60,165 bases of DNA, taken from IMG/VR virus record IMGVR_UViG_3300007775_000011, positions 1 to 60,165 of that record, one strand, 5' to 3'. The notes below the pieces were generated by a model that saw nothing but the letters and a program-made list of their open reading frames with translations, had not been told where the DNA came from and searched no databases. Below are positions 45,759 through 60,088 of this stretch, one piece after another. The first letter of the stretch is position 1. Every line of letters starts with the position of its first letter. The position numbers and the translations under genes are program-made. Source of the stretch: a virus (lineage: Duplodnaviria; Caudoviricetes).

Positions 45759-45796
45759 CTTTAACCGTACACGGTCGGCATAATACTCTGTTAAGT
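45759..45796 (+). other. degenerate terminal attC (right arm)
   Basis: ...GGCATAATACTCT GTTAAGT; R' coincides with the stop of ORF 45791. Confidence 0.4.
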
Positions 45797-46045
45797 AGCA
45801 CGTAGTTTTCTTTCTATCTCTTCCGCACTGTCCCGTTTAAAGTCAATCCATTGGTGGTTCTCACCATTGTTACACTGCATTTCACCATCATCACCATACA
45901 ATCCACTCTTTGAGCAACCGTGATTTAACCACAGCAATTCACGCAACTTCTTCTCGCTACTTAACAAGTCGCTTGAGTTCGACGGCAAACCCGCCGGTTT
46001 GGTTGCTCTTATCAATTCTCCAGTTGCTATTTCTGTTCCTGCCAT
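45791..46045 (-). CDS. cassette ORF, hypothetical
   Basis: AAGGAGG RBS and ATG inside attC 45959-46092; LRELLWLNHGC..LYGDDGEMQC. Confidence 0.75.
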   Translation of the reverse strand: MAGTEIATGELIRATKPAGLPSNSSDLLSSEKKLRELLWLNHGCSKSGLYGDDGEMQCNNGENHQWIDFKRDSAEEIERKLRAT

Positions 46046-46092
46046 TTCATTCCTCCTTAGTTGGGTTTCCGCGTCTCAACTTGGTGTTAAAA
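45959..46092 (+). other. attC site
   Basis: ACTTAAC AAGTC GCTTGAGTTCGAC ... GCGTCTCAAC TTGGT GTTAAAA. Confidence 0.75.
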
Positions 46093-46341
46093 ACCCTCTT
46101 CATAATTGCAATAGTCGCAGGTTGCCTTACAGTTTCTTGGCAATGCCAATGTTTTCTTGCCAGATAATCTCAAAGGGTATTCCCCACAATTAGGGCATAC
46201 CAAATAAGGCTCAACCGGCTTAGTGGTTGCAATAACACGGCTTTTAACAACCGCATCAACCGGACTCGCTACCTCTGGCTTGTCTGGGCAGTTATCACAT
46301 TTTCCGGGAATTTTTACGCAATCTTCACATTCTGTTTTCAT
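46087..46341 (-). CDS. cassette ORF, zinc-ribbon protein
   Basis: CEDC..CDNC, CPNC..CDYC; stop lies in R', start lies inside the next attC. Confidence 0.7.
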   Translation of the reverse strand: MKTECEDCVKIPGKCDNCPDKPEVASPVDAVVKSRVIATTKPVEPYLVCPNCGEYPLRLSGKKTLALPRNCKATCDYCNYEEGF

Positions 46342-46374
46342 TATCTGCTCTCCTGTTATGGCAACACGTTGGTG
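46242..46374 (+). other. attC site
   Basis: TTTTAAC AACC GCATCAACCGGAC ... TCCTGTTATGG CAACAC GTTGGTG; extra base in L''. Confidence 0.75.
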
Positions 46375-46377
46375 CGC

Positions 46378-46608
46378 TTAATAACATGGATATTCACAGG
46401 CGCTCACGCAGTCATCACACCACGGCACCCCGTTACGTGGTACTTTTGCCAATTCTTTCTTGCTAACAAAAACTCCGCATTCGTGGCATTTTTCACGCTT
46501 TTGCACAGAACCAGTAAATTCAGTGGATTCGCTAACCTTGGCGTTTTGGTGGCAGTTATAAGGCGACAAGGTGCATGTGTCGTCATAAATGCAGTCTATA
46601 CATTCCAT
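46378..46608 (-). CDS. cassette ORF, Cys-rich protein
   Basis: MECIDC...CHEC...CDDC; start inside attC 46505-46637. Confidence 0.65.
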   Translation of the reverse strand: MECIDCIYDDTCTLSPYNCHQNAKVSESTEFTGSVQKREKCHECGVFVSKKELAKVPRNGVPWCDDCVSACEYPCY

Positions 46609-46637
46609 TCGCTCACCTTTGATTATGGTCGTTAGCA
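46505..46637 (+). other. attC site
   Basis: ACAGAAC CAGT AAATTCAGTGGAT ... CCTTTGATT ATGGTC GTTAGCA. Confidence 0.65.
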
Positions 46638-46853
46638 AAACGTCATACCAAGTAAAAACTGGAGCCTGTTTTCTAATTTCTCCAAATGCTCACGAGGCAC
46701 AACGCACACTGGCGTTCCATTCTCTATCTCTGCTGCTTCCTGCCACTCCGACAGGTATTTATCAGGCATCCCGCCGTGATCCATGACTATCTTCCCACCT
46801 ATTATTCTTAGCTTGTCTGGGGCAGCATCCCCAAGCTTTCTTATATTTTTCAC
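46632..46853 (-). CDS. cassette ORF, hypothetical
   Basis: GGAGG RBS then GTG at 46853; stop in R'. Confidence 0.65.
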   Translation of the reverse strand: MKNIRKLGDAAPDKLRIIGGKIVMDHGGMPDKYLSEWQEAAEIENGTPVCVVPREHLEKLENRLQFLLGMTFC

Positions 46854-46868
46854 GGCGTACCTCCTGTT

Positions 46869-46958
46869 TGCTAACCAGCGCATTAAATCGACTGGAATAA
46901 TCTTTGGTTATTAAAATCGGCCAGCCCATCGGCCAGCGGTTTATGCTAAACGTTAGCG
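46869..46958 (+). other. attC site
   Basis: TGCTAAC CAGC GCATTAAATCGACTGG ... CCAGCGGTTTATGC TAAAC GTTAGCG; closely similar to 59405-59494. Confidence 0.9.
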
Positions 46959-47222
46959 GTCCATGAATGGGCCGACAATAGTAACGTCAATAGTCCCTAA
47001 ATTCCATCCCCTTCTGTGTCGTATGCGTCTGCCAGGGGAGTAAGACAAAATATACCAAAGGTTTTGCCGTTTGATCTCAATCTTGATGCCCCACTGCATC
47101 CAGTTCGGCATTGCCTGGTTTACGGATTTACGAAGCCGATGGAATCCGCTAACCAGGCGTTGCACTCTGACCCCATGGGGCGTGGGTTCTTTGGTTGTTT
47201 GTTTATTCGGTGTTTCCATCAT
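46953..47222 (-). CDS. cassette ORF, hypothetical
   Basis: AAGGAG RBS and ATG inside attC 47147-47272; stop in R'. Confidence 0.65.
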   Translation of the reverse strand: MMETPNKQTTKEPTPHGVRVQRLVSGFHRLRKSVNQAMPNWMQWGIKIEIKRQNLWYILSYSPGRRIRHRRGWNLGTIDVTIVGPFMDR

Positions 47223-47272
47223 TTCAAATCTCCTTTGTTCACCCATGGGTCAGGTGAACTTAAACGCTCTAT
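47147..47272 (+). other. attC site (R' core mutated GTT>GCT)
   Basis: CGCTAAC CAGGC GTTGCACTCTGACCCCATGGG ... CCCATGGGTCAGGTGAAC TTAAAC GCTCTAT. Confidence 0.75.
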
Positions 47273-47431
47273 TTCCCGTCTAAATTATCCCATATATGGT
47301 CTAAAACCTTATTTCCAAGCTCTGTGTATCTAAGCCAGCCTCGCAATCCGCAGTCTCGCAAAGTCTTGTCTTTCAAAGTCTCAAATTCCTTTTGCTTGTT
47401 ATCCGGCTACCAGTTATGCCGGTCGTTATCT
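47269..47431 (-). pseudogene. truncated cassette: ORF remnant plus attC right half
   Basis: open frame ...LRGWLRYTELGNKVLDHIWDNLDGK* without a clear start; CAGTTATGC CGGTC GTTATCT without a left arm. Confidence 0.5.
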
Positions 47432-47629
47432 TCGACAACCTTTCATGCCAATAACGACTTCAAATTTTTCATGGCAGTTTTCACATTCCACAGTAAAACA
47501 TCCATTGTGTTTCTTGGGCTTCTTGTATCTCGCCCACGTTTCACACTTTTTGCACTGTCTGGGCAATCCTTTCAAAAACCGTTCACATCCAGGCTGAGAA
47601 ATTTCATCAATAAAATCTAAATTTTCCAT
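47426..47629 (-). CDS. cassette ORF, zinc-ribbon protein
   Basis: MENLDF...CKKC...CENC; stop in R'; could start at 47677 inside the attC. Confidence 0.65.
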   Translation of the reverse strand: MENLDFIDEISQPGCERFLKGLPRQCKKCETWARYKKPKKHNGCFTVECENCHEKFEVVIGMKGCRR

Positions 47630-47632
47630 GTC

Positions 47633-47718
47633 AGATAACCATCGCATTAACGCAGACTGGAAGAAAGCTGGCGGCATTGGCTCGTTCAAGGCCCAGCAGC
47701 TCAACAAAAACGTTATAT
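47633..47718 (+). other. attC site
   Basis: AGATAAC CATC GCATTAACGCAGACTGG ... CCAGCAGCTCAAC AAAAAC GTTATAT. Confidence 0.7.
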
Positions 47719-47733
47719 TGCTAAATAAAAATG

Positions 47734-47847
47734 TTGCCATGAAGGGAGTTGAACCCTCATCTGCCACCAGAAAAATCATACAGAATCGAACTGTATCAGC
47801 TTCCCCACCTTTCATGGGGAGGTGTCTGCCAATTTCACCACATGGCA
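47734..47847 (-). ncRNA. tRNA-like RNA occupying a whole cassette
   Basis: acceptor stem TGCCATG/CATGGCA, Leu-type D arm GTGAAATTGGCAGACAC, T arm GAGGGTTCAACTCCCTT; non-canonical anticodon loop and an extra TTCGATT hairpin. Confidence 0.7.
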
Positions 47848-47976
47848 ACATAACAAAAAAATAAAGCGGATTGCTAAAACCGTGGCGGATTTAAGTTATT
47901 GGCTGTGGCGCTACATTTCGGTAACGTCCAAGTTTTATACTAGCAATCCGCAACAGCTTATTATAGGTTGTTATCT
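47848..47976 (+). other. attC site (long, VCR-like layout)
   Basis: ACATAAC AAAA AAATAAAGCGGATTGCTA ... CAGCTTATT ATAGGTT GTTATCT. Confidence 0.75.
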
Positions 47977-48147
47977 TTCCCGTTCACGCATGGCATCCAA
48001 GGCCATGTTTATTAAGCGGGAAATTCCTTTACCTTTTTGCGCCCTGATCCACCTGTTATTAATCCGGCTTATCCTTGCGCCTATTCGTACATGGTCGGTT
48101 GTAGGGCCAACCTTTCGGCCAGCCCCTTTTCTTGCACCGCCTCTCAT
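47971..48147 (-). CDS. small DNA-binding protein (RGG motif + ribbon-helix-helix-like; not in ORF track)
   Basis: MRGGARKGAGRK...VRIGARIS...ISRLINMALD, 58 aa; stop in R'. Confidence 0.75.
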   Translation of the reverse strand: MRGGARKGAGRKVGPTTDHVRIGARISRINNRWIRAQKGKGISRLINMALDAMRERER

Positions 48148-48359
48148 ATGTATTTACCTGTTACAGGAGATACAACATACAAACCGCTTTCACTGTGCAA
48201 ATCATCTTTGATGCTACATATCCCTTCAGCCTCCAAAGTCTCAAAGGCAGCAAATAACTGTTTCTGCCCGGTGTGTATATTAAAACATCTCCCGTTATCC
48301 ATAGCCAAAGAGTTACATATCATCCTCACTGCTTCTATTTGCGCTTGTGCCTTTTTCAT
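48144..48359 (-). CDS. cassette ORF, hypothetical
   Basis: GGAGG RBS; first gene after the cassette promoter; ATGA-coupled to the next gene. Confidence 0.7.
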   Translation of the reverse strand: MKKAQAQIEAVRMICNSLAMDNGRCFNIHTGQKQLFAAFETLEAEGICSIKDDLHSESGLYVVSPVTGKYI

Positions 48360-48373
48360 GGTGTATCCTCCGT

Positions 48374-48429
48374 TTGGCTTTATTGCCCTTTGTTAAATAC
48401 AGAATATCATCATTTTTGATTTTTGTCTA
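48374..48429 (-). promoter_or_regulatory. cassette-borne promoter plus conserved leader
   Basis: TAGACA-17 nt-TATTCT with TGn extension; leader AACAAAGGGCAATAAAGCCAA repeated at 60089-60112. Confidence 0.7.
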
Positions 48430-48463
48430 CCTTTTTTCAATAAATAATTAAAATAAAGTAAAA

Positions 48464-48529
48464 AGATAACAAATAAATTAACGACGACAGGAAACCTGCG
48501 GTTTATCAGCCCTCATTATTGCCGTTATA
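48464..48529 (+). other. attC site (right boundary of array A)
   Basis: AGATAAC AAAT AAATTAACGACGACAGG AAA CCTGCGGTTTAT ... GTTATAT. Confidence 0.6.
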
Positions 48530-48606
48530 TTTTTAAGCTATTCCATCAATGTGGGTTATTGTTTCAACCCACCGGACAGGTATATCACCGGCCCATTCCT
48601 TGTCAT

Positions 48607-50055
48607 TCATCGAATAAAATTATTTGAACAAATAGGACAAGTCCAAATATTTTTCTTTTTATTATGGTACATCCATTCATTTCCGCAATTACAAGGATGA
48701 AAATGAACTTCATCTTTTTCATACCAACTTTTTCCAGCTGGAGAAAATTCTGTTTCAGCGTCAAGTGGTACGATTAACCACGGCCATACTTCACGAATAT
48801 CATGGCACATTATTTTATCAGTAACTTTCATTACATGATTTATTTCAGAGGGCTCAAAATCAAAAACAATAGCATCATGAATCTGTCCTAAGATCTTTGT
48901 TTCCCATTTCTCTTCTATAGATATTTTTTGAATATGAATCAAAGACCAAAGAAGACAATGAAAAGCTGATCCCTGTACAGCATAATTGATAGCTTCATTC
49001 CGGGACATTACTCCCTGATATCTAAAACCTGTAAAACTATCAAAATATCCATTTTCTTGATAGGATTCTACATGATCATTTTTCCATTGATTATAAACTG
49101 GATAGCGGTCTTCCCAAAATTTTCTTTCAACTTTTTGTATATGCTTTTCAAATTTTTTATAGGATCGGATACCGTGTTTTGCTAAATGTTTTTTTAATGG
49201 AACCCCATCTGCTGTTTTAAGATTTAACTGTTCTATTCCTACCCAAAGAGCTTGGGCGCAATTAACATAATAATCACCGTAAAATTGAGGAAAGACAAAC
49301 TTATTTTTACCGCAATATCTTGCATCTTTTGTCCACTCATCCATTTCTAATTTATAGCATTCCATTGCCATATCTCGGTGCATATCTCTTTCCGGGTCGG
49401 TAATATCCTCTATCATAGTGGGATCACGATGATAACAAGCGGCAACTTTTACTTCTATGCCGCCATAATCTTTTTCCCCAAATACTCTTTTATCTGTTCT
49501 TGGTAAAAAAGCTTTTCTTACCATACTTTTTACCCAAGGGATTCTAACCGGGATATTTTGGAAATTAATATTAGATGATGATGAACGAAAAGTGACTACA
49601 GTATGTAAATTAAAAAATGGGTAAAGAAAACCATCAACCTGTTCTCTGAGTATTCCTCCAAGATAGGTACCTTGGATTTTTTCCATTTTTCTTCTTTCTA
49701 ATAATAAATTAAGCCATTCCATATTAAGAGCTTGTAAACTTTCTTCATCAGTGGAACCTTGATCACCGCCAGTTTGTTTTTTTGCTTTTAATTTTAAATG
49801 ATCATAAAGAAGTTCGGATAATTGTTCATTGGAATTATATTTGAATTTACTGCCATATAACTCTTTCCATTTCTGTACTTCTTTATACTCACTTAATTTG
49901 ATTTCAGCTTTTTTGATTTTTTTTGTTAATCTTCGATCTTGTAAATGGCAATGATCTAAATCAATTTTCATTCCATTCAACTGGATCTGAGAAAGAGCCA
50001 ATGCCCCTTCATGAAGCAGCTGATATCCTTTGATGTCAACAGGAGTTATTTGCAT
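48607..50055 (-). CDS. polA: family A DNA polymerase, polymerase domain
   Basis: TFRSSS.NINFQNIP, DYGGIE (motif A), R..GK...F..FYG (motif B), NYAVQGSA, QIHD (motif C). Confidence 0.92.
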   Translation of the reverse strand: MQITPVDIKGYQLLHEGALALSQIQLNGMKIDLDHCHLQDRRLTKKIKKAEIKLSEYKEVQKWKELYGSKFKYNSNEQLSELLYDHLKLKAKKQTGGDQGSTDEESLQALNMEWLNLLLERRKMEKIQGTYLGGILREQVDGFLYPFFNLHTVVTFRSSSSNINFQNIPVRIPWVKSMVRKAFLPRTDKRVFGEKDYGGIEVKVAACYHRDPTMIEDITDPERDMHRDMAMECYKLEMDEWTKDARYCGKNKFVFPQFYGDYYVNCAQALWVGIEQLNLKTADGVPLKKHLAKHGIRSYKKFEKHIQKVERKFWEDRYPVYNQWKNDHVESYQENGYFDSFTGFRYQGVMSRNEAINYAVQGSAFHCLLWSLIHIQKISIEEKWETKILGQIHDAIVFDFEPSEINHVMKVTDKIMCHDIREVWPWLIVPLDAETEFSPAGKSWYEKDEVHFHPCNCGNEWMYHNKKKNIWTCPICSNNFIR

Positions 50056-51281
50056 ATATCAATTCCCAATTTTTTACGTTTTTCCCATTGAACTTCAGCC
50101 AACCGATATTCCAATAAAGAATCCAGAGCATTTCTTTTTAGAACATCTTTCATATTAGCTTCATAAATTCTATTAAAAGAATTAGCGTGCTTTTCCGTCC
50201 CTTTTAAAAATTCCCCGGTTGCGTCTTTAAAATCCATTATTCCAAAATTAACAATACTTTGAAATTCAAGATCATTACACCCACGGCGATTATCTAATGT
50301 ATGAGATCCATACATTGTATCCCATAACCAACCTTCTGGGATTATATTCATAATATGTCTAGTCCACATATCTTCAAATTTCATGTGATGGGCTATTTTT
50401 TTAATATTTGGATTTTTAAGAATCCGGCCCCAAATCCTTTCAACATTTATATCATCAAAAGGAAAGGCAAAAGCATTATCCCTATCAGTTGCTATACTTA
50501 AAGTGACAATATGGTGTCCTTTTGCAATAGGACGTAGACCAGTTGTTTCATAATCAAAAGCAATAGGATTTATAAACCCTCTATTTATTTCTTCCAATTT
50601 GGGCAGTATTTGTTTAGGAGATGTTAAAATTTCAATACAACTTTCAGGGTCTTTCCATTCCGGGAAATCATCTTGGTAATGATCAATAGCATTTTTGAGA
50701 TCCATCTCAAATATAGTTTCAATAACCTGATTCCCGTGCGCGGCTTTTTTTACATAAGCTGGGTGGTACATTGGGAATATCCAACATTTATGATCTTGGT
50801 CAGGTATTTGCCAACCCCTCCAAGAATAAATCCCGGTACCCACAGAAACACGATGGCCGAAACAACTATCAATAGCGATATTACCCAATAAAAATATGGC
50901 CTTTGGTTTGTATTTTTTAATGACTTTTAAAATCCGGTTTCGACAAGCTTGGATTTCTTTTGGTTTTGGATTTCTACTATCAGGTGGGTGACAATTAACG
51001 CTATTGATTTTTATACAATCTCTATCTATATCAATCTTGTTTCTTTTTAATAATCTGCGGAGATATAGACCTGGTTTACCAACTAATTGTTTTCCAAGTT
51101 TATCTTCTTTTTCTCCCGGAGCCTCAGCCCAGATTAATATTTCTTTTTTACCTTCTCCGTGAGGTTTCATTTTCGGAGATTTACAAGACCGATATAGACC
51201 GCAGGAGGCGCATCCAATAGTTTTACCGGATGCCCCCCTGTTTATTCCAACAATTTCGTCTTTACTAAAAAAGCCGGACAT
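50046..51281 (-). CDS. family-4 uracil-DNA glycosylase domain fused to a 3'-5' exonuclease domain (N-terminal part of a split SPO1-type polymerase)
   Basis: CASC..C, EAPG..ED, CHPP..R.P, YHPAY; then DYETTGL, HHMKFE, DTM, NALD. Confidence 0.88.
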   Translation of the reverse strand: MSGFFSKDEIVGINRGASGKTIGCASCGLYRSCKSPKMKPHGEGKKEILIWAEAPGEKEDKLGKQLVGKPGLYLRRLLKRNKIDIDRDCIKINSVNCHPPDSRNPKPKEIQACRNRILKVIKKYKPKAIFLLGNIAIDSCFGHRVSVGTGIYSWRGWQIPDQDHKCWIFPMYHPAYVKKAAHGNQVIETIFEMDLKNAIDHYQDDFPEWKDPESCIEILTSPKQILPKLEEINRGFINPIAFDYETTGLRPIAKGHHIVTLSIATDRDNAFAFPFDDINVERIWGRILKNPNIKKIAHHMKFEDMWTRHIMNIIPEGWLWDTMYGSHTLDNRRGCNDLEFQSIVNFGIMDFKDATGEFLKGTEKHANSFNRIYEANMKDVLKRNALDSLLEYRLAEVQWEKRKKLGIDICK

Positions 51282-52315
51282 CAGTTTTCCTTTGCCATAG
51301 CTACAACGTGTTTGAAGTTATCCTTTTCAAATAATATTGATTTATCTCCAATAATCGCAGTACGAAACATTTTAAGAATTTGGATAAAATTTGAAGGGTT
51401 AATTTTAAAAGTACATTCCCCGGCTTTGGATTTCATTTTAAGGGACTTTTTAAACCACCCATTATCCCCTTTCCCTTCCACTGTTAACTTTTTCTTGTTA
51501 ACAGAAACTATCAATGAATTATTATCTGCCATAATAGTTGCATTATTTATAGCAGATATCAAATCTTTGGGAAATTCAATTTCATCTCCATCTACTTTAA
51601 AAAAACTGGAAATATCTGGATATTTCCCATCGTGCGTTCTACAGCTAAAAATGGTGCCTAAGCGGTTTTTAAAATGGGCCCATCCTTCGGTATGGGAAAT
51701 CTTTACAGGCTTATAAGAAGCTAAATGACGAGCTGAGGAAGCTGGTAAAAGATACCCTTCACTATCAGCTCCTGTTTCTGTGTCCCAAATAGTAGCACGG
51801 GAATTATCACAAGATTGAATAAAATCAGGCTTTACATATAAACATGTAAAAATTGGTTGGGAAGCATCGCCGGAAGCAGAGAAAATACAACTGTTTATAG
51901 CGGTAATAAAATTATCAGGATTAGGGATTTTCTTAAACTTTTTGGGTTGTGACATTTCTTCGATAGGCAAACGAATTTCTTGTTCAAGTCTGATCCCGGC
52001 TTCCCCATCCGATTCTGTAGAGATAGTTAATTCAGAATTATCAATTTCCAGTTCAATTTCTTCGCAAGAAAAACTTTTTAAAATACTGAAAAACTCTCTT
52101 GCTTGAACTGCTGCCTTCATATCTAAAGAACCATCCCCAACAAGTGGGTGTTGTATGGCTATTTCATCATTAAAAGTCATAGCCATATCTTCATTAAATA
52201 CAAAACAGGAAGCTTGCTCAACAAGACTATTTTCAGAAGCAATCCCCGGCTGAAGTATTTGTAAAATATCCAATAATTCTTTTCTATTAATTTTCATTGC
52301 TCCTTCTCCTTGCAT
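51281..52315 (-). CDS. dnaN: DNA polymerase sliding clamp (beta-like)
   Basis: KINRKELL, CDNSR, GKYPD; size. Confidence 0.8.
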   Translation of the reverse strand: MQGEGAMKINRKELLDILQILQPGIASENSLVEQASCFVFNEDMAMTFNDEIAIQHPLVGDGSLDMKAAVQAREFFSILKSFSCEEIELEIDNSELTISTESDGEAGIRLEQEIRLPIEEMSQPKKFKKIPNPDNFITAINSCIFSASGDASQPIFTCLYVKPDFIQSCDNSRATIWDTETGADSEGYLLPASSARHLASYKPVKISHTEGWAHFKNRLGTIFSCRTHDGKYPDISSFFKVDGDEIEFPKDLISAINNATIMADNNSLIVSVNKKKLTVEGKGDNGWFKKSLKMKSKAGECTFKINPSNFIQILKMFRTAIIGDKSILFEKDNFKHVVAMAKEN

Positions 52316-52322
52316 TAAATTA

Positions 52323-53144
52323 TTATTCCCAACTATGTATTTTTTTTATTTCAACAGGATTCATTCTTTTTTTGAAAAAATAAAGAGATTCACTATCAAG
52401 ACAACCCCCATCATTAATCAATCTTGGATCATTTTGAATAAATGGAAAGGTATAAAAACAATATTGGACATATTCAGATAGAAAAGGTTCTGGAGCGCAT
52501 ATACAATAACGAAAATTGATATATTTCCAATTGTAATCCCAAATTACAATAGCTTTTAATTCGTTATTGCAGCATAATCCATAACGATTAAACCCCTTAT
52601 CTAAATAAATAGTTAATGTTTCGGGGTCATATATGACTTCTTCGGAGTTTTTATTTTGCAACCATTTTAAAAAAAGTTCATTAATATCATCACTCATTCT
52701 TTTTGTAACATAATTGCAACAAGGATCATTTAAGTTAACCCAAGTATATAATTTTCCTTTCGGCCATTTTTTGATATTTTTTCTAAAGGTTTTCCATTTA
52801 TTCCCTGAAAGATCCAAAAAGTTTCTTTGATCAAAAATAAATTCATAATCAAGAAATTTAGATATAGGGCCACAAACTCTATATACATTTGGCCAATTAG
52901 GAAAATCGGCCCGTACTCCTTTCATTGGCATATAAGGCCATTTTATATCTGTTCGGAGCGGGGGGAATAAATCAAATTTTTTATCATCAAAAGCATGAAT
53001 ACCGCTATGATTTTGTTCTTCAGTAATTCCGGCTTTTTCAAAATATTCACGACTAATGAAAAAGTTAGGATCAATCTTGGTTTTTTTCAGAGTTTCCAGA
53101 TATAATCCCAAGTGTTGTTCCTTCTGGTTGTTTTTTTGTCCCAC
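52323..53144 (-). CDS. DUF2156/GNAT-fold protein
   Basis: DYEFIF....LDLSGNKWKTFRKNIKKW, INDGG....L..FK.RMNP. Confidence 0.6.
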   Translation of the reverse strand: MGQKNNQKEQHLGLYLETLKKTKIDPNFFISREYFEKAGITEEQNHSGIHAFDDKKFDLFPPLRTDIKWPYMPMKGVRADFPNWPNVYRVCGPISKFLDYEFIFDQRNFLDLSGNKWKTFRKNIKKWPKGKLYTWVNLNDPCCNYVTKRMSDDINELFLKWLQNKNSEEVIYDPETLTIYLDKGFNRYGLCCNNELKAIVIWDYNWKYINFRYCICAPEPFLSEYVQYCFYTFPFIQNDPRLINDGGCLDSESLYFFKKRMNPVEIKKIHSWE

Positions 53145-53179
53145 AACTTGATCCCCCCATTTTTATTAAAGCGGTTTCC

Positions 53180-53365
53180 TTAAATATAAACAATTAATTC
53201 TTGTTCCATTTGCTTTAATAAATTTTTTGCTATTCTTTTCCGCTTATTATTTTTGCAATATTCTTCCATTGCGTCTATAATAATTTTAGATTCTTTGGTG
53301 GAAGCAAAAATAATAGAATCCCCCGTTTCTGTTCCTTTTCCATTATATAATAGAGCGATTTTCAT
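53180..53365 (-). CDS. hypothetical protein
   Basis: 61 aa, ATGA-coupled. Confidence 0.55.
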   Translation of the reverse strand: MKIALLYNGKGTETGDSIIFASTKESKIIIDAMEEYCKNNKRKRIAKNLLKQMEQELIVYI

Positions 53366-53589
53366 AATGTTATTTTTTCAAGTTTTATTTTAGAGGGTTT
53401 TCTTGATTGAGGAGTAAAATCTAATTCTTGTATCATTTCGGCTTGTCCCTTACTTAAAAAAGTAAGAGCCTCAGAACGTTGTCCCCAAGTCCATTTACCA
53501 TCTTTAACAGTGAGGAATTTTTTCCAGTTTCTTTTTTTAGATTTAGGTATAGAAACGATTAAGAATATTTCTATTTCCATTTGATTCAT
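53362..53589 (-). CDS. hypothetical protein
   Basis: 75 aa, GGGGG RBS. Confidence 0.55.
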   Translation of the reverse strand: MNQMEIEIFLIVSIPKSKKRNWKKFLTVKDGKWTWGQRSEALTFLSKGQAEMIQELDFTPQSRKPSKIKLEKITL

Positions 53590-53630
53590 CCCCCGGTTTT
53601 GGTTTAATTACTTATTTTCAACTTTTAGGG

Positions 53631-53684
53631 ATTGGAGGGGGAATTGAACCCCCCAACAGCGTCCTACCCTTTCCTAAGCCCAAT
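53631..53684 (-). ncRNA. tRNA-like minihelix (acceptor stem + T arm only)
   Basis: ATTGGG...GGGGG TTCAATT CCCCC TCCAAT. Confidence 0.4.
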
Positions 53685-53876
53685 ACATAAAAACCAAAAA
53701 TAAATAATTAATAAAGGGGTGGGACTAGAATGGGAGAGCCAGCCCCACCCCTTTAAAGTCCTACATAAAGGCGTAATTTTATAAAATATTATAAATTATT
53801 GTTTTAATCTAATCCATAAACAAACCACCTCCTTCTTCCGGGCCAACTATCCGGGATCGGCTACTTGGTTTATTAA

Positions 53877-54125
53877 TTAGTATTTCCTTATTTTATTTTT
53901 GGGATCGAAAGCTTTGGCAAAAAAAGCTTTTAATTCACCATATCCATTACCAAATATTTTATCCCAAAACTGAGAATAATAATATATATTTCCATCATCT
54001 TCCTCCCAAGACAAAATTCCTTTTAAATCTCCATCTTTACAAATTTTAAATTCAATTTTAGAACAGGAGGCATTGTGTTGTTTAAGTGTATTTTTTAAAA
54101 GCTTTTCAATCTTTTTTAAATTCAT
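53877..54125 (-). CDS. hypothetical protein
   Basis: GGGAG RBS before MNLKKIEK. Confidence 0.55.
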   Translation of the reverse strand: MNLKKIEKLLKNTLKQHNASCSKIEFKICKDGDLKGILSWEEDDGNIYYYSQFWDKIFGNGYGELKAFFAKAFDPKNKIRKY

Positions 54126-54309
54126 TTTCTTTCTCCCTTTCTTTTTGTTCTTGGACAAATTTTGTAAAGAAAGATTTTTCAATAGCTTCAAATTCATCAG
54201 AAGTTAAATTAATATTGCGTTTAAAAAATAACCCTTCCCGGTCTTTAAAATCCAATTGAATAGTTCTGCGATCATTTTTATATACTGTAGGAAGTTTAGC
54301 AATAATCAT
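54106..54309 (-). CDS. hypothetical protein
   Basis: 67 aa, abuts the upstream glycosyltransferase. Confidence 0.5.
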   Translation of the reverse strand: MIIAKLPTVYKNDRRTIQLDFKDREGLFFKRNINLTSDEFEAIEKSFFTKFVQEQKEREKENEFKKD

Positions 54310-54310
54310 A

Positions 54311-55456
54311 TTATTTTCTTTTGATAAGTTTCATTCCATATTCATCATTGCTTTTTATTGGGGTAATATCAGGTTTTAAAATTGGTTTATTACGTTTAAA
54401 TTTTGAATAATCAACTTGATGGTGCCAACGATTAAATTTAAAAACTATATCAACAACATCAGGATGTTGTTTTTGGAGACTTTTAGCAAATGATTTTCGA
54501 TAATCATTTGTATTGTATACATTATCTGTATTTCCACCTTTTAAGGCTCCTTTAGTTTTTCCACCGTCAAATGTTTTTCCTTTATTCATTAAAAGGACAT
54601 AGAATAATAAAGTACAATATCCATCTTTTAATAATCTGAGACTGAGATCAGTATCTTCATTATATCTTCCCCGCCATCTATGCGGCAGATCAGTCTTTAA
54701 AAGAATACAAGAATAAATTCTGGAATTGAATAAATAAGGAGGGTGATTGGGAGATCGGTCACGGACGAAACCTTGATCATGTGGTCCGGCCATTACTATA
54801 TTTTCATATCTGTCAACAAAATCTTCCATAGCCCGAAAGAAACCACCCCCGGTCACTTTTAATCTTCGGTTATGATTACACCTTGTAAATGTAGTTATAT
54901 TGTCATCAACAGTCCAATGACGTTTAAATCCTCTTTTTTTACACCATTCCCATATATAATTTCGTGCCGGCACTGATCCTCTTCCAAGATCATGAAAAGG
55001 CATAACAACTACTTTATTTTTTCCAAGGTGTTTTATATATTCTTCAGCTTCGGTTTCTTCAACAAAAAATTTATAAGAAACCCCAAGTTGATCCAGTAGT
55101 TTTCCTGTAGTTTGGACATCGGCCCTTCCTTTACTCGGTATACAAACTGGATATTTAGAATCTTCAGGTGGGCCCGTATATTCAAATTTATTTTTTTCAA
55201 GTGGTTTTTGTCCAGGGTACCACGCAGAATCAGTTCTTTTATTAATTCTAATTCCTAATTTTTCGGCAAATTCTTTTACATCTTCTTCAGTCATAAAATT
55301 CATAACTATTCTGCGTTGTGGAGATGCATCTTTCATAACAAATTCAGGCATTCCCCACCACATATCTTTCCAATGTGGCTCGAATAATCCAAAATCAATA
55401 GATTCTTTTTCACGGGTAGGTCGATTTTCGTTTAATTCTTTTTCAAAATTATCCAT
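54311..55456 (-). CDS. TAGT/GREB1-like GT-A glycosyltransferase
   Basis: WWGMPEF N-terminal domain; YPVCIPSKGR, ARNYIW, WTVDDN, WRGRYNEDTDLSLRLL, GGNT, RWHHQVDY. Confidence 0.8.
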   Translation of the reverse strand: MDNFEKELNENRPTREKESIDFGLFEPHWKDMWWGMPEFVMKDASPQRRIVMNFMTEEDVKEFAEKLGIRINKRTDSAWYPGQKPLEKNKFEYTGPPEDSKYPVCIPSKGRADVQTTGKLLDQLGVSYKFFVEETEAEEYIKHLGKNKVVVMPFHDLGRGSVPARNYIWEWCKKRGFKRHWTVDDNITTFTRCNHNRRLKVTGGGFFRAMEDFVDRYENIVMAGPHDQGFVRDRSPNHPPYLFNSRIYSCILLKTDLPHRWRGRYNEDTDLSLRLLKDGYCTLLFYVLLMNKGKTFDGGKTKGALKGGNTDNVYNTNDYRKSFAKSLQKQHPDVVDIVFKFNRWHHQVDYSKFKRNKPILKPDITPIKSNDEYGMKLIKRK

Positions 55457-55468
55457 ATTAATACCTGT

Positions 55469-55536
55469 TTTAATTATTTTTATTTTTTAAATAAACAACT
55501 TGTTTCGACTCTATTTAAAAAATAAAAATAATTAAA
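55469..55536. repeat. perfect 25-bp A/T-only inverted repeat, 18-nt spacer
   Basis: TTTAATTATTTTTATTTTTTAAATA / TATTTAAAAAATAAAAATAATTAAA. Confidence 0.85.
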
Positions 55537-55548
55537 GGGGCGAGTACT

Positions 55549-55587
55549 AAAAAGTTTTAAATCCCTCTTAAATTTAAAAACAAGGGG
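55549..55587 (-). repeat. conserved intergenic motif, copy 4
   Basis: reverse complement CCCCTTGTTTTTAAATTTAAGAGGGATTTAAAACTTTTT, preceded by a GGGGATATA/TATATCCCC hairpin. Confidence 0.85.
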
Positions 55588-55630
55588 GATATACCGTTTG
55601 ATATATCCCCCATTTCGATCCGGGTATATA

Positions 55631-56179
55631 TTATTTCCCGGATGCCTGTTTTCTCAGAACGGCATAGATGGCGTTGCCGATAACACGGTATGACTTTTCA
55701 GGGAATTTTTCCTTAACTTCAAGAACAACATCATCTTCGTGTCTGTCCCCAAGACCGTCTTTCAGGGTTTCCTGCAGAAAAGTTGCCATCCCTTCTTTCT
55801 TTTTGCCGGCACCTTTCTTTTTGGAACCGGATTTTTTAGCCTTGCTCTTATCTTTCGGAGCGGCCTTTTTTTCTTCTTCCTCTTTGGCCCCTTCTTCATT
55901 GACCTTGGGACCAATTTCAAGTTCTTCAAAAAGAGCCCAGGTTTCATCGGTCAGCGGATCACTTTCAGCAACATCAGCGTCTGCGATTTCGATAATTTCC
56001 GCTTTCAGTTCTTCGATGTCGGAATCGGTATCAAGAGGTGGTTCAAGACCGATAACATCATTCAGATCTTCGGCGGCGGCGATCAGGCGTTTATCCATAC
56101 TGGGGCCTTTTTTCTTGGCCGGGGCTTTTTTCTTGCCGGTGGTATTTTTCGTTGTTTTTCCTGTTGCTTTCTTTGCCAT
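55631..56179 (-). CDS. Lys-rich/acidic hypothetical protein (histone H1-like tracts)
   Basis: MAKKATGKTTK..KKAPAKKK; AAGGAG RBS; own promoter. Confidence 0.75.
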   Translation of the reverse strand: MAKKATGKTTKNTTGKKKAPAKKKGPSMDKRLIAAAEDLNDVIGLEPPLDTDSDIEELKAEIIEIADADVAESDPLTDETWALFEELEIGPKVNEEGAKEEEEKKAAPKDKSKAKKSGSKKKGAGKKKEGMATFLQETLKDGLGDRHEDDVVLEVKEKFPEKSYRVIGNAIYAVLRKQASGK

Positions 56180-56245
56180 GGTAATTCTCCTTTGTTTTGG
56201 TTTGTTTATGGCTTTTGGTTAAGTACTGTATTGATCTTGTAAAAC

Positions 56246-56274
56246 ATCATATTCTATTTTTAACACTAAGTAAA
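56246..56274 (-). promoter_or_regulatory. sigma70-type promoter
   Basis: TTTACT-17 nt-TATGAT with a T-rich UP tract, same design as 4650-4678. Confidence 0.65.
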
Positions 56275-56312
56275 GAAAAAAAAGAGATAAAAAAGAAAAA
56301 AATTAATTTTTA

Positions 56313-57860
56313 TTAAAAATAGCTTCCCAAATAAGGTCTGCCGGTTTCTAAAGATTGCAAAACTTTAATCTCCAAAGATTGATCAAATTCACCTTCCCTA
56401 CCCAATAAAGGTGACATTCTCATTATTTTATCTTTCTTTTCTTTTGCTGTTTGGTTTAAAGCATAAGCAGCAGTCACGTGATCCCACTTTCTTCCGGATT
56501 CACTAAAGTTTTTAGTTCTTAATTTTCTTGTTTCTAATCCATCTGAATCTGCCTGGGTAGCGGTAATGAAACATAAATTATATTTTAAACTGATTTGCCG
56601 CACTGCTTTCCAAACCTCATTAATTTTATGTCTCATATCAATTCGATTATCAGACCATTCAAGTAAATCAATATAATCCAAAACCAATACTTTCGGAATC
56701 CATCCTCTATTTGCCCATATTTCTAAAATAGATATTAATTCATTAATTCTCAAAGAAGGTCGGGCAACTACACGAAAATCATTAGACCCGGAAAATTTGC
56801 TCATCCATTTCAATCCAGCTCTATAGCCTTCACGCCAAGTCAAAGGTTCCACCTTTTCTCTGATTTTATACCAGACTGCTCCTTTAAATTTTTGAGGATT
56901 CCTTTTTAAACAATATGTACAGGGGACATATCCTAATTCGGTTGCATCTTCAAATGAAATTTTCGCAGGCGGTTCATCTTCTTTTTCCGGCTCTTCATAT
57001 AGTCCAAAATCGCAAGTTCTTTTTTTTATACTACAAGAATCGGTTTGATTATGAAGACAATCTATTATTGGTATTTTAATTTCACCACAATATCTTTGGT
57101 CATAGCTTTTTTGGCATAATCTTACATGAAGTCTTCTGACCTGCTGTTCCTCACTTAAATCTCCGATTTGAAATAAGGCAACTCTATTACGAAAACGATG
57201 AGCCCGGAAAGCTAACTCATCAAGCCACCACGTTTTACCTCTTTTTGCCGGGGCTAAAAAAGAAATGAAAGTTCCTTCTGAAAATTGATTATTAAAAAGA
57301 ACGTCTAAAGCTCCTGGATATGTGAAAAGAGGGTCTTGGAACGTCTCAAAAGCAGTTCTGATTTTATCAGCATTAGTAAAAGGATTGAAACCCAAATCTT
57401 CATGAAGTTCTATAGATCGGTAATTTTCAAGAACTTCTTGTGCATGTAACGGCTCATCATCATGTAAAGCTTGGCTGGCTTCTCTAATTGTTATTTTTAT
57501 TCTTCTTTCGTCTAGATAAGCTCTTGATTGTTTTAAATAATATTCAAAGTCATATTCTTTTTCTTTTTCATATTGGTTACTCAAAGAATCCATAAGATCA
57601 GCCATATCATCGGCCAAATCTTCATCAATATCATCTTTTCTTACTTTTTGATCATATATCTCTTGGAGTAGTTTCCCCGGAGCTTTCCCAAATTCTTCAT
57701 GGTATTCTAAAATCCAATTACATAATAATTTACTTACATCAGCTTGGAATAAATCAAGATTTAATTCAGGATATATGGACTTCAGAAAGGGGGTGCTAAT
57801 AGCCAACCCAATTAATAAATTCCTTTCTGAAGAAACTTTTATTTTTCTTTTGCGTATCAT
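56313..57860 (-). CDS. dnaB: replicative DnaB-like helicase
   Basis: APAKRGKT Walker A, VLDYIDLL, ITATQA, FSES..K; Cys-rich insertion. Confidence 0.82.
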   Translation of the reverse strand: MIRKRKIKVSSERNLLIGLAISTPFLKSIYPELNLDLFQADVSKLLCNWILEYHEEFGKAPGKLLQEIYDQKVRKDDIDEDLADDMADLMDSLSNQYEKEKEYDFEYYLKQSRAYLDERRIKITIREASQALHDDEPLHAQEVLENYRSIELHEDLGFNPFTNADKIRTAFETFQDPLFTYPGALDVLFNNQFSEGTFISFLAPAKRGKTWWLDELAFRAHRFRNRVALFQIGDLSEEQQVRRLHVRLCQKSYDQRYCGEIKIPIIDCLHNQTDSCSIKKRTCDFGLYEEPEKEDEPPAKISFEDATELGYVPCTYCLKRNPQKFKGAVWYKIREKVEPLTWREGYRAGLKWMSKFSGSNDFRVVARPSLRINELISILEIWANRGWIPKVLVLDYIDLLEWSDNRIDMRHKINEVWKAVRQISLKYNLCFITATQADSDGLETRKLRTKNFSESGRKWDHVTAAYALNQTAKEKKDKIMRMSPLLGREGEFDQSLEIKVLQSLETGRPYLGSYF

Positions 57861-57887
57861 AGAACGGTACCAATCAGATGCAAGAGT
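57855..57887 (-). repeat. 33-bp exact copy of terL 6197-6229 (inverted)
   Basis: ACTCTTGCATCTGATTGGTACCGTTCTATGATA at both loci. Confidence 0.9.
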
Positions 57888-57935
57888 TTATGCCGCGCAT
57901 TCATTGGCGCGGTCTGGTTATAATCGGCGTTATAT
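57859..57935 (+). other. attC site (left arm atypical)
   Basis: GCCGCGC...GCGCGGTCTGGTTAT AATCGGC GTTATAT; left arm is the terL-identical segment. Confidence 0.55.
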
Positions 57936-57937
57936 TG

Positions 57938-58153
57938 CTAGTTATTGAAAACTATCAATTCCACCGGCACATTACGCACAGACCCATCGGGCATCTCTAC
58001 AACCGCAGTAGTAAAGTTCCCCGGGCCATTCTCAAACTCTTCATAGTTAACCCCAAACTGGTGAAACACCCCATTTCCTACAGCAACCTTATCAAAGTGT
58101 GTTTGGCCCTTTACCCTTTGCCACTCATAAACAACAACTTTCCTAGTTTCCAT
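57938..58153 (-). CDS. cassette ORF, conserved-looking phage hypothetical protein
   Basis: G.FHQFGVNYEEFENGPGNFTTAVVEMPDG. Confidence 0.8.
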   Translation of the reverse strand: METRKVVVYEWQRVKGQTHFDKVAVGNGVFHQFGVNYEEFENGPGNFTTAVVEMPDGSVRNVPVELIVFNN

Positions 58154-58167
58154 ATATTAGCCCCCCA

Positions 58168-58261
58168 AGATAACAATTAAATTCACGCAGACGGCGCGAA
58201 CGTGGGCGGCACTATCCGTGTATTTCTTCGGTGGTGCCGCTGATGATTATGTGCGTTATGC
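58168..58261 (+). other. attC site
   Basis: AGATAAC AATT AAATTCACGCAGACGGC ... GCCGCTGATGATT ATGTGC GTTATGC. Confidence 0.8.
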
Positions 58262-58480
58262 GTACGAATAACTTGATCCGAACTCTTCTTTATATCCACA
58301 CGAACAAACACCAAACTTGTCTACTCTGTATATCTCTCCAAATGGGCCACTGTCTAATGTTTTTCTACCAAATATTTTTACTTTATGTCCCAAGTATTGA
58401 GCGTGATAGTCGAGTGTACTCATAACACCACGGTTAACTTGACAAGAAGAGGCTTGTGTCTTTTTTGTTGTTTCTTTCAT
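58256..58480 (-). CDS. cassette ORF, hypothetical (H...CSC motif)
   Basis: start inside attC 58420-58507; stop in R'. Confidence 0.7.
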   Translation of the reverse strand: MKETTKKTQASSCQVNRGVMSTLDYHAQYLGHKVKIFGRKTLDSGPFGEIYRVDKFGVCSCGYKEEFGSSYSYA

Positions 58481-58507
58481 GGCTTACAAGTTACCTCCAC
58501 GTTATGT
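58420..58507 (+). other. attC site
   Basis: TCATAAC ACCAC GGTTAACTTGAC ... CAAGTTACC TCCAC GTTATGT. Confidence 0.85.
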
Positions 58508-58831
58508 TCTCAACTTGCGACGGTATTCATCCATCCCAATACGTCGCAAATTTGAGTAATCATTGTCAAGCAAAGCCCATGCGAAGAAAACACCGTAGGT
58601 AATCATGGCAACGGTACGCAAATACTCCCCCGGGCCAATTACTAGCCAACAAACAACCACTAATATTATAGACGGCAAACCGAACAGCAAACAGAATCGG
58701 GTGATATCGTTGTACCAAAACCAAATCCAAAAAGAATCATAACCAGTCGCTTCACTTGACCCCAAGGGGTCGGCGTTCTGCGCTTTGTCAAATCCTGTTT
58801 CTGGGTCTAAATCAAACGGGCTATTATTCAT
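58502..58831 (-). CDS. cassette ORF, two-TM membrane protein
   Basis: GGAGG RBS and ATG inside attC 58737-58871; two hydrophobic helices. Confidence 0.75.
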   Translation of the reverse strand: MNNSPFDLDPETGFDKAQNADPLGSSEATGYDSFWIWFWYNDITRFCLLFGLPSIILVVVCWLVIGPGEYLRTVAMITYGVFFAWALLDNDYSNLRRIGMDEYRRKLRT

Positions 58832-58871
58832 TTTGTCCTCCCCTTGGGTCAAGTGACCTCAATCGTTATCT
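58737..58871 (+). other. attC site
   Basis: TCATAAC CAGTC GCTTCACTTGACCCCAAGGGG ... CCCCTTGGGTCAAGTGACC TCAATC GTTATCT. Confidence 0.88.
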
Positions 58872-59123
58872 TGCCGACCATGTTAAAAAGCTTTTATATG
58901 CCATCCCAGCCCAAAACATATACAACGGAAGCCATGTTTTATTTTCAACTGCTGCTCCTATAAAATAGGCAGGCATCCAAACAGTAGCACAAACAAAAAA
59001 GGCTATTAGCATCCTCCACTTCTTGACAAAGATAACCAGTCGCTTAACAGCTGACCGCAAGAACTGGTGCGGTTTTTGTTCCTCTTCTGCTATCGTTACC
59101 GTCTGTTCATGGTCGTATTTCAT
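58866..59123 (-). CDS. cassette ORF, two-TM membrane protein
   Basis: AAGGAG RBS and ATG inside attC 59030-59168; stop in R'. Confidence 0.75.
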   Translation of the reverse strand: MKYDHEQTVTIAEEEQKPHQFLRSAVKRLVIFVKKWRMLIAFFVCATVWMPAYFIGAAVENKTWLPLYMFWAGMAYKSFLTWSAR

Positions 59124-59168
59124 TGGTTTCTCCTTCTTGCGGCAGGTTAGCTTATTAAAACGGTGGGT
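59030..59168 (+). other. attC site (R' degenerate)
   Basis: AGATAAC CAGTC GCTTAACAGCTGACCGCAAGAA ... TTCTTGCGGCAGGTTAGC TTATTAAAAC GGTGGGT. Confidence 0.65.
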
Positions 59169-59180
59169 TGCTCAAGTATC

Positions 59181-59387
59181 TTAAGTAATGGCTCCGTTTA
59201 CATCTATGTTTGTAACGTCAGCAAGAACTCCCTCAAGCCATCTAATATTGTCATGCCATGCCTCAGTAAAAGTTATTTTTCCGGTATCAATATCTTCCTG
59301 GTGCATAAACTCAAATCCACAGATGTTTTCATACTTCTGCATGCACTGACGCTGTTTACTGTTTATTTTCTTTGCGTATACAGCCAT
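59181..59387 (-). CDS. cassette ORF, hypothetical
   Basis: AGGAGG RBS 7 nt before MAVYAKK. Confidence 0.75.
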   Translation of the reverse strand: MAVYAKKINSKQRQCMQKYENICGFEFMHQEDIDTGKITFTEAWHDNIRWLEGVLADVTNIDVNGAIT

Positions 59388-59404
59388 TCGCATACCTCCT
59401 TGCA

Positions 59405-59494
59405 ACCCAACCAGCGCATTAAAGCCGACTGGAATAAAGTTTGTTTATTAAAATCTGCCAGCACGGGGCCAGCGGTTTATGCTTAACGTTAGTT
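59405..59494 (+). other. attC site
   Basis: ACCCAAC CAGC GCATTAAAGCCGACTGG ... CCAGCGGTTTATGC TTAAC GTTAGTT. Confidence 0.9.
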
Positions 59495-59497
59495 TAC

Positions 59498-59635
59498 TTA
59501 GTGCGTATTAACCACACTCTTGATATCTATACTATGCAATCTACTTTCCTTTAGTGCCAAATTAATAGCCTCGAAAAATTCCATCATCATTTTGCTTTCC
59601 CATACTTCACCATTATAAAAAGTAACTTTCCACAT
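59498..59635 (-). CDS. cassette ORF (45 aa; not in ORF track)
   Basis: GAGG RBS; MWKVTFYNGEVWESKMMMEFFEAINLALKESRLHSIDIKSVVNTH. Confidence 0.65.
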   Translation of the reverse strand: MWKVTFYNGEVWESKMMMEFFEAINLALKESRLHSIDIKSVVNTH

Positions 59636-59649
59636 AAATTTACCTCGTA

Positions 59650-59893: not shown

Positions 59894-59894
59894 T

Positions 59895-60068: not shown

Positions 60069-60088
60069 TGTTCTTCTCCTTAGTTTGG

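Follow-up and report, generated by a model that had tools for sequence, protein, structure and literature searches.

Probable inverted integron cassettes in a virulent-type phage contig, with candidate translation starts inside attC-type sites

Two islands of small genes in a phage replication module

The DNA considered here, called the window, is the entire linear IMG/VR record IMGVR_UViG_3300007775_000011 (Duplodnaviria; Caudoviricetes; 60,165 bases; CheckV completeness 87%), a virulent-type, myovirus-like phage contig. It carries two islands of small open reading frames (ORFs) separated by palindromes of the type of attC, the recombination site of integron cassettes, and several of these ORFs appear to start inside such a site. 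According to profile searches, the plus strand of the contig encodes terminase, portal, head protease, tail sheath, tape measure and tail spike. On the minus strand is a replication module, which comprises a DnaB-like helicase, a DNA polymerase encoded by two ORFs, RecA-like, SbcCD-like and primase-like proteins and an SNF2 helicase. Two stretches inside this module, with a G+C content of 42-46% against 30-36% in their surroundings, constitute the islands. Island A is located at 45790-48531 on the minus strand (G+C about 44% versus 33-36% in its flanks), and island B, the second array, at 57861-60124 on the same strand, where its upstream end is the end of the contig. Together they contain at least 14 attC-type palindromes, and all their genes are on the minus strand.

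In the sense of its genes, island A opens with a complete attC-type site (A0) and closes with a lone TTAAC box at 45794-45790, which contains the stop codon of its last ORF. Island B ends at the start codon (57860) of the gene encoding the DnaB-like helicase; relatives of this helicase were found at two loci (59% identity), and the one inspected, L002, has no such island upstream of the gene. Nearly all the small-ORF junctions of the islands display on the minus strand the same layout, consisting of an xTAAC box, an imperfect palindrome and a GTTAx box, the first box usually holding the stop codon TAA of the upstream ORF. This is the case at 9 of the 14 window sites, the stop standing 5-30 nt upstream at the others, in agreement with a preliminary description of this DNA, made from the sequence alone, which had placed it at the foot of the stem. 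Searches with Pfam on 18 island ORFs returned two sub-threshold matches only, Rfam nothing relevant, either at the gathering score for the whole window or in E-value mode for island A, ARAGORN no tRNA over the window, and a distant blastn of island A against a phage GenBank collection no match.

Similar arrays are found in other phage contigs. A degenerate 20-base pattern of the 3' arm, based on three sites, has two true matches in viral contigs, both in G001 (also numbered L019), an IMG/VR phage contig of 47,468 bases with about 43% G+C; three matches in genome contigs and three in metagenome contigs were rejected as chance, as were, on inspection, nine loci matching an exact 16-mer of site A5, and an exact 21-mer of the conserved box has no match in viral contigs. 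The G001 array extends between about 9,940 and 2,790 and includes 18 sites by reading, 15 of them supported by the covariance model described below. Over these sites and the 14 of the window, the ORFs between sites encode 45-139 amino acids. The window and G001 match by blastn in their palindromes and not in their genes, the attC homology stopping at the box, and an all-against-all blastp of their island ORFs found no common gene body and no cassette in two contexts. Three other contigs, L055, L058 and L038, come from 74 loci fetched via one cassette protein family; L055 has a single site in the layout of the window, with an ATG in its loop.

Structure and polarity of the attC-type sites

When 14 short sites of 82-96 nt, four of them in the window and ten in G001, are aligned, AACG and GTT are invariant, and among the 31 sites listed for the two contigs (13 in the window and 18 in G001) xxAAC is found at the start of 30, A4 having ATAGA, and GTTxx at the end of all. 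The RNAalifold consensus of the short sites is composed of a 4-bp outer R helix, 5 unpaired nucleotides on each side and an inner stem of 13 pairs, with all three stem bulges on the 3' side. Double, compensatory changes occur at 11 of the 17 consensus pairs. Compared with 500 column shuffles of this alignment, 89.1% versus 73.0% of the cells are paired and 41 versus 15.5 are changed on both sides, neither value being reached by any of the shuffles, and sliding the partners by 1-3 columns lowers pairing to 30-52%. When the two arms of each of the 31 sites are aligned with one another, nearly all sites have their extra bases on the 3' arm. Individual sites also differ in a compensatory way, as A4 is 76% identical to the G001 site g12 and related to B5, with arms TGACC/GGTCA versus GGAAC/GTTCC and CATGG/CCATG versus CAAGG/CCTTG, and A7 has both arms, not its loop, in common with the G001 site g17 and the L055 site. 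A plain regular-expression scan for AAC...GTT palindromes gave 20 matches, indistinguishable from shuffles (4-24).

A covariance model, R1, was built only from this phage alignment. Over the 107,633 bases of the window and G001, it yields 25 matches, all on the gene-sense strand and all within the arrays, namely the 14 training sites and 11 new ones, among which are A0 (48463-48531; 23.7 bits, E 5.9e-4), the short site opening island A, and B2 (59649-59735; 38.4 bits). With filters off, full-length minus-strand matches are obtained at all seven window sites that have an ATG in the loop (9.9-31.8 bits). The model also recognizes canonical integron sites. In plasmid R100, taken as a control, it matches the aadA1 attC antisense to aadA1 with 38.7 bits (E 3e-7), versus 8.8 bits on the sense strand, and in plasmid R46, a second control, it matches the four integron attCs (oxa2, aadA1, oxa2 and orfD) antisense at 16.4-29 bits, with one further match of E < 1 in 7 kb. 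Because the five attCs of R100 and R46 are all matched on the bottom strand, the phage elements are of attC type in both sequence and structure, with their gene strand corresponding to the canonical bottom strand. According to Nivina et al. (2016), the AAC of the bottom strand lies in R' and is the cleavage site, whereas the extrahelical bases are on the opposite arm, a geometry that the arm alignments of the 31 sites reproduce. The orientation given in the preliminary description, with genes running through the complement of L''/R'', is thereby confirmed.

Since the ORFs are on the bottom strand of attC, the cassettes are inverted and the unit is, in the direction of transcription, an attC followed by an ORF; in the window arrays, the ORF sense is therefore not that of the attC top strand, as it is in a canonical gene cassette. 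Indeed, the strand recognized by R1 is that of the genes in the window, in G001 and in L055, and the antisense one in R100, R46, L058 and L038. The latter two are IMG/VR phage contigs with arrays in the canonical orientation (L058, 1764-3400, plus strand, five matches; L038, 2660-3650, plus strand, two matches). The L058 ORF at 1612-1887 ends just before the GTT box and has its last 40 or so codons inside the attC, which is the mirror image of the window case.

The limits of the arrays are informative in the same respect. The G001 array starts, as island A does, with a complete attC (g1), and past the last ORF both end with a lone xTAAC box (2553-2549 in G001) followed by DNA without any model match. 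The last junction of island B, B8 (57861-57933, minus strand), located before the helicase gene, is a weak case of such an end, with an ATAAC box and then a poor palindrome without a minus-strand model match. The canonical crossover, between AA and C of the R' box on the bottom strand, would fall behind the TAA of xTAAC, which is usually the stop codon of the preceding ORF. A cassette would thus run from the C of this box via the attC and the ORF to the next TAA, and each ORF would belong with the attC in front of it, the L''/R'' arm being beside or inside its own 5' end. The start, made of a Shine-Dalgarno (SD) sequence and an ATG, would stand just past the attC in about half of the cassettes and would be moved into the variable terminal loop in the other seven. 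With the crossover placed on the opposite arm, excision and insertion would leave the ORF intact. An integron integrase supplied by a host would presumably be the enzyme recombining the sites at this presumed position.

The remaining sites without an internal start are all on the minus strand as well. A1 (47847-47977; 26.1 bits) has the upstream stop TAA inside its ATAAC box and is followed by a tRNA-like cassette devoid of ORF. The next ORF has its ATG 10 nt past GTT at the short site A2 (47632-47719; 53.5 bits), starts from GTG 46853, past the site, at the short site A5 (46868-46959; 79.7 bits), and also begins past the site at the short site B7 (58167-58262; 61.3 bits). The short site B3 (59404-59495; 88.6 bits) is 89% identical to A5. 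In attCs of the A5/B3 type (46918-46937 and 59457-59473, minus strand; also g1, g4 and g16 in G001), an inner G+C hairpin followed by AGATTTTAATAA is scanned as terminator-like.

Starts inside the sites and alternative readings

A survey of the 31 sites found an SD sequence and an ATG in the loop of 12 longer ones (84-239 nt), 45-187 nt before GTT and with the frame open into the body. Seven are among the 13 window sites (A4, A6, A7, A8, B4, B5 and B6) and five among the 18 of G001 (g6, g12, g13, g14 and g17). At the 14 short sites the start codon comes 10-33 nt past GTT, mostly with an SD sequence between, and none has an SD-ATG in the loop. The preliminary description had listed the window cases as ORFs ending at 45791, 46087, 46378, 46953, 58256, 58502 and 58866, with an ATG and a ribosome-binding site (RBS) inside the attC; all seven are present on the minus strand with the peptides it quoted, and each has an SD-preceded in-loop ATG. 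The SD match comprises 4-6 nt and stands 5-12 nt before the ATG. From the xxAAC box to this ATG there are 25-50 nt, and from the ATG on to the GTT box 54-93 nt, and the first 17-31 codons lie within the loop and the L''/R'' arm. Within 150 nt downstream of GTT, no SD-preceded start was found at any of the seven sites. For the three ORFs searched (45791, 58256 and 58502), the gene calls of the protein database (84, 74 and 109 amino acids, respectively) correspond to the in-loop ATG. From these sequence features we infer that the in-loop ATGs serve as starts.

In island A, site A4 (47146-47273; 13.2 bits), with the degenerate 5' box ATAGA, has in its loop the SD AAGGAG and ATG 47222, the start of the ORF at 46953-47222, whose 3'-arm portion encodes VRVQRLVS with GTT read as Val. 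A6 (46504-46638; 15.2 bits, E 0.044) carries an SD and ATG 46608 for the ORF at 46378-46608. It has two candidate 3' boxes, GTTAGC at 46536 and GGTTCT at about 46514; B4 likewise has two alternatives, and for both sites the model picks the boxes used in the preliminary description. In A7 (46241-46375; 9.9 bits), the SD AGGAG and ATG 46341 precede the ORF at 46087-46341, in which the arm encodes SPVDAVVK. A8 (45958-46093; 13.5 bits) provides the SD AAGGAGG and ATG 46045 to the ORF at 45791-46045, composed of a 30-residue attC-encoded leader and a conserved YGDDGEMQC-type core. In island B, B4 (59029-59161; 15.3 bits) has the SD AAGGAG and ATG 59123; the arm of its ORF (58866-59123) encodes SAVKRLVI, and hydrophobic stretches in the translation suggest a small membrane protein. 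B5 (58736-58872; 14.9 bits), with arms of 30 nt, has the SD GGGGAGG and ATG 58831, from which the ORF at 58502-58831 begins with a leader of about 30 residues that is absent from its own protein family and present on two unrelated proteins. Finally, B6 (58419-58508; 31.8 bits) has ATG 58480 in the loop with GGAGGT 12 nt before it, and a second in-frame ATG within its GTTATG box (58423); its ORF extends over 58256-58480.

The GTT core is read in all three frames, as the preliminary description had stated. Its G is at codon position 1 in 8 of the 12 in-loop sites, i.e. A4, A6 (box GTTAGC), A7, B4, B6, g12, g13 and g17, at position 2 in B5 (GGT-TAT) and g14, and at position 3 in A8 (TTG-TTA) and g6. 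In the commonest frame, the arm encodes a recurrent motif such as RLVS, RLVI, RLVM, ALVS or AVVK. Homologous arms are read in different frames, as in B5 versus A4 and g12; arms covary, and they are kept where loops differ. These observations argue for a constraint at the DNA level, as already proposed. The arm must serve both hairpin pairing and a reading frame, which accounts for the reading of GTT in three frames and for peptides that are unconserved or generic.

The homologue check that had been proposed in the preliminary description was carried out on the families of the 45791 and 58502 ORFs, and in both of them conservation begins just past the attC-encoded peptide. Among 34 relatives of the 45791 ORF, of which 26 were aligned and eight left out for brevity only, invariant residues occur from L38, within an LRELLW block. 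Nine of the 26 have longer, mutually different extensions, and none shares the 30-residue leader of the window. The 58502 family comprises 74 relatives, with 82 amino acids as the commonest length (21/74); in the 22 aligned, conservation starts from WIWFWYND, four residues past the arm-encoded ...ATGY, and the attC-encoded leader of the window stands in place of the usual N-terminus METNKFKRA. In P0110 and P0111, two proteins encoded in other assemblies, 26 of the first 29 residues are those of the B5 leader and nothing beyond it is shared, so that one attC-encoded leader is joined to three unrelated bodies. This leader was not found in IMG/VR viral contigs, and a homologue search with the 58256 ORF returned only itself. 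The idea of a variable leader appended to each protein fits A8 and B5. In A6 and A7, and in g6 and g14 of G001, the loop encodes CxxC pairs that look like real protein parts; what the loop encodes there may have a function in the protein instead of being only a leader.

Another proposal of the preliminary description was that the attC hairpin in the mRNA occludes the RBS. At the 12 in-loop sites, the predicted unpaired probability of the SD and AUG is 0.56 with the 3' arm versus 0.68 without it, and it is 0.49 at fourteen sites where the start is outside the attC. A clear effect of the 3' arm is predicted at three sites only, B6 (0.11 with versus 0.63 without the arm), B5 (0.42 versus 0.74) and B4 (0.49 versus 0.76), and since it is limited to these, occlusion is possible in some cassettes and is not a general property. 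The same description suggested that the hairpin may couple translation to the upstream gene; all seven sites have an SD of their own. A review (PMC8876359) describes attC hairpins in mRNA as hindering ribosomes, a block relieved by short ORFs within attC.

Taken as a whole, the structural and evolutionary inferences of the preliminary description hold, whereas that on translational control is weak. The islands are probably clusters of attC sites lacking integron integrases (CALINs), made of inverted cassettes in which attC stands before its own ORF and often contains its start. The term CALIN applies because PF00589, the tyrosine recombinase family, has no match in the window proteins or in G001 (CheckV completeness 81%), and neither contig displays the intI with adjacent attI and Pc that defines a complete integron. 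This absence, which leaves mobility as a deduction, weighs against the interpretation, as do several other observations. Six of the seven in-loop sites have low R1 scores (9.9-15.3 bits, E 0.028-0.65 in searches of 2.5-3.7 kb), and within the islands the best plus-strand match reaches 9.6 bits and one unexplained minus-strand match 9.1 bits. With noise at about 9-10 bits, A7 is at noise level by R1 alone and depends on other evidence; A4 and A8 are weak by the same measure, and all three are also backed by arm alignments and homologous sites elsewhere. Loops of 100-190 nt, as in the G001 sites of 204 and 239 nt, exceed the usual attC lengths. In mobile integrons, the bottom strand of attC folds more stably than the top strand and with more G:T pairs (Nivina et al. 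2016), and neither bias was found in the 31 sites, the gene-sense strand being the more stable in 16 (mean difference -0.2 kcal/mol, p = 0.46), with a mean of 0.90 versus 1.0 G:T pairs. Such biases are a statistical tendency and not a defining requirement of attC.

Three alternative explanations have to be considered. In one of them, the sites are of attC type, the real starts are at or after GTT, and the in-loop SD-ATG is fortuitous or only brings ribosomes through the hairpin. In its favour, 17 of the 26 aligned 45791 homologues begin at most 12 residues before LRELLW, i.e. at the end of the attC, and PMC8876359 describes short ORFs inside attC by which downstream translation is aided. In addition, downstream starts may serve the 45791 ORF (TTG 45967, without SD) and the 58256 ORF (the ATG of the GTTATG box, 58423), and g12 has an in-frame ATG in the same box; these candidates also count against the preferred interpretation. 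However, all the downstream candidates lack an SD, whereas all 12 in-loop ATGs have one. The in-loop ATGs are in frame with the body without any stop between, so that the long protein would result from any initiation there. Moreover, the 58502 ORF has no in-frame SD-preceded start downstream, its next in-frame start falling after the conserved core has begun, and two other gene-called proteins begin with the same leader. Late starts throughout thus appear unlikely. Still less likely is that the gene-sense strand is the functional top strand, with a crossover at GTT, inside the coding sequence, joining the SD-ATG-leader of one cassette to the body of another. The leader found on three unrelated bodies, with similarity ending at the GTT box, and the arrest of the window-G001 attC homology at this box are what such exchanges would leave, but large chromosomal integrons commonly carry similar attCs on cassettes that are unrelated, R1 matches the five canonical attCs on the bottom strand only, and the arrays open with a complete attC and close with a lone xTAAC box. 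As three frames are in use at GTT, two exchanges out of three would also break the ORF.

The palindromes could otherwise be RNA-level elements of the phage, acting in processing, termination or translation control, or a repeat family spread by other means, and be merely attC-like. This is the least likely of the three. It would explain the lack of an integrase, the terminator-like inner hairpin and T run of A5/B3-type sites, the partial sequestration of some SDs and the missing bottom-strand energy bias. An RNA hairpin, however, needs neither invariant AAC and GTT nor an unpaired spacer nor one-sided bulges; the phage-trained model finds the R100 and R46 attCs and almost nothing else in 11 kb; and the same site families occur in unrelated phages beside unrelated genes. 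Besides, experiments have shown that IntI1 can recombine attCs of virulent phages (Qi et al. 2023, PMC9892861).

Beyond the inverted CALINs themselves, a broader proposal can be made, which is tentative and on balance doubtful: phages would hold a pool of mirror-orientation cassettes, in which attC is a portable initiation module providing SD, ATG and leader to any body placed behind it. The same attC leader would then be met on unrelated proteins, as in P0037, P0110 and P0111, and a cassette would arise whenever an attC of this kind is joined to a fragment of a gene. In a bacterial integron, where they would be antisense to Pc, the cassettes would remain silent; in a phage they would be expressed by read-through, and a host integrase could shuffle them between co-infecting phages.

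Other features were noted in and around the islands. A 36-nt box, present at 48374-48409 and 60089-60124 in copies 92% identical, heads the first two-gene cassette of both islands; it is preceded by AT-rich DNA with weak sigma-70-like matches, the proteins downstream are unrelated, and it may be a shared promoter or operator. Promoter-like sites do not rise above the level of shuffles. Between the stop codon of ORF 47426, within an ATAAC box, and A4, the segment 47269-47430 (minus strand) contains three ATAAC repeats, a short hairpin and, as sole ORF, one of 35 codons beginning with TTG, and is possibly a decayed cassette or a recombination remnant. The ORF-less cassette at 47731-47851 (minus strand), right after a GTTATG box, is a tRNA-like sequence of about 120 nt (fold z = -3.0) with an 11-bp closing stem, two T-arm-like hairpins and a D arm that we take to be of the Leu/Ser type. 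A similar element occupies the same position in the canonical-orientation array of L058 (2692-2824, plus strand; z = -3.5), and neither is called by ARAGORN or Rfam. The G001 array includes about 580 nt of non-coding DNA (about 6560-7140, minus strand) filled with AAATTAGTTNNAACTAA-type repeats that look like iterons, which possibly indicates a replication origin carried in a cassette. Elsewhere in the window, another G+C-richer stretch, in which no attC-type site was found, encodes on the minus strand a pentapeptide-repeat protein (3071-3544; PF00805, E 7e-27) and a DUF932 protein (3604-4587; E 3e-65). A TET-associated glycosyltransferase is encoded at 54311-55456 (minus strand; PF20691, E 5e-40), a family that presumably points to phage DNA with modified, glycosylated bases.

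Comparison with known integron systems

In the usual picture of a cassette, the ORF comes before the attC, is expressed from Pc, and is at most touched by the attC at its stop codon, whereas whole arrays of these lytic-type phages display the opposite layout, the beginning of the gene being carried by the loop and arm of the attC. If the sites are active, attC tolerates about 60-190 nt of coding loop and an arm doubling as reading frame, a recombination site can double as a translation-initiation region, and there are cassettes of a class that functions in phage-like contexts only. The finding is relevant to the formation of cassettes, a question still unsolved, to annotation tools expecting an ORF followed by an attC, and to gene exchange between phages and host integrons. 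Word searches of an open-access library retrieved no title or abstract on arrays with all ORFs on the bottom strand or on an SD and start codon in the attC loop, and an earlier description is possible.

The likeness to the attCs of class 1 integrons, such as those of aadA1 and oxa2, includes the AAC and GTT of the R boxes, the unpaired central spacer, the extrahelical bases on one arm, the variable terminal loop and the tandem arrangement with short ORFs, in addition to the recognition of five canonical sites out of five by R1. Unlike in class 1 integrons, the phage ORFs are on the bottom strand with the attC first, no intI or attI is nearby, no bottom-strand energy bias is seen, and the loops have room for an SD with a start codon and as many as about 60 codons. 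An ORF placed against the canonical direction is also known from the toxin-antitoxin cassettes of chromosomal integrons. Those are exceptions with their own promoters in otherwise canonical arrays, whereas in the phages entire arrays are inverted and run in the direction of phage transcription.

Clusters of attC in phages are already published: 17 CALINs from phages, including virulent phages, were reported by Qi et al. (2023; Front Microbiol, PMC9892861), who also showed that IntI1 recombines five phage attC sites. The present islands resemble them in being integrase-less attC clusters in lytic phage genomes. In that report, two arrays of virulent phages are described as co-oriented "as in bacterial arrays", and its section 3.4 mentions no ORF starting inside an attC. 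Unlike these two, the arrays described here (14 or more sites in the window, 15 or more in G001) have all their ORFs on the bottom strand.

Overlaps between attC and coding sequence are themselves familiar. The attC overlaps the stop codon in most resistance cassettes (Nat Commun 2024, PMC11511950), and short ORFs inside attC are described in PMC8876359; as in the phage arrays, the coding sequence overlaps the R''/L'' side and the hairpin in the mRNA can affect translation. In the cases given in these two sources, the overlap concerns the 3' end of the ORF or a separate short ORF, whereas here it is the 5' end of the main ORF, with its SD and ATG. Another parallel is provided by ORF-11 and ORF-18 of attI1 and by the attI1 N-terminal fusions (PMC8876359), in which a recombination site supplies the SD, the start and N-terminal residues or aids translation. 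The attI1 case, as presented in that review, acts across the crossover point and for the first cassette only, whereas in the phage arrays each cassette can carry its own initiation region in its own attC.

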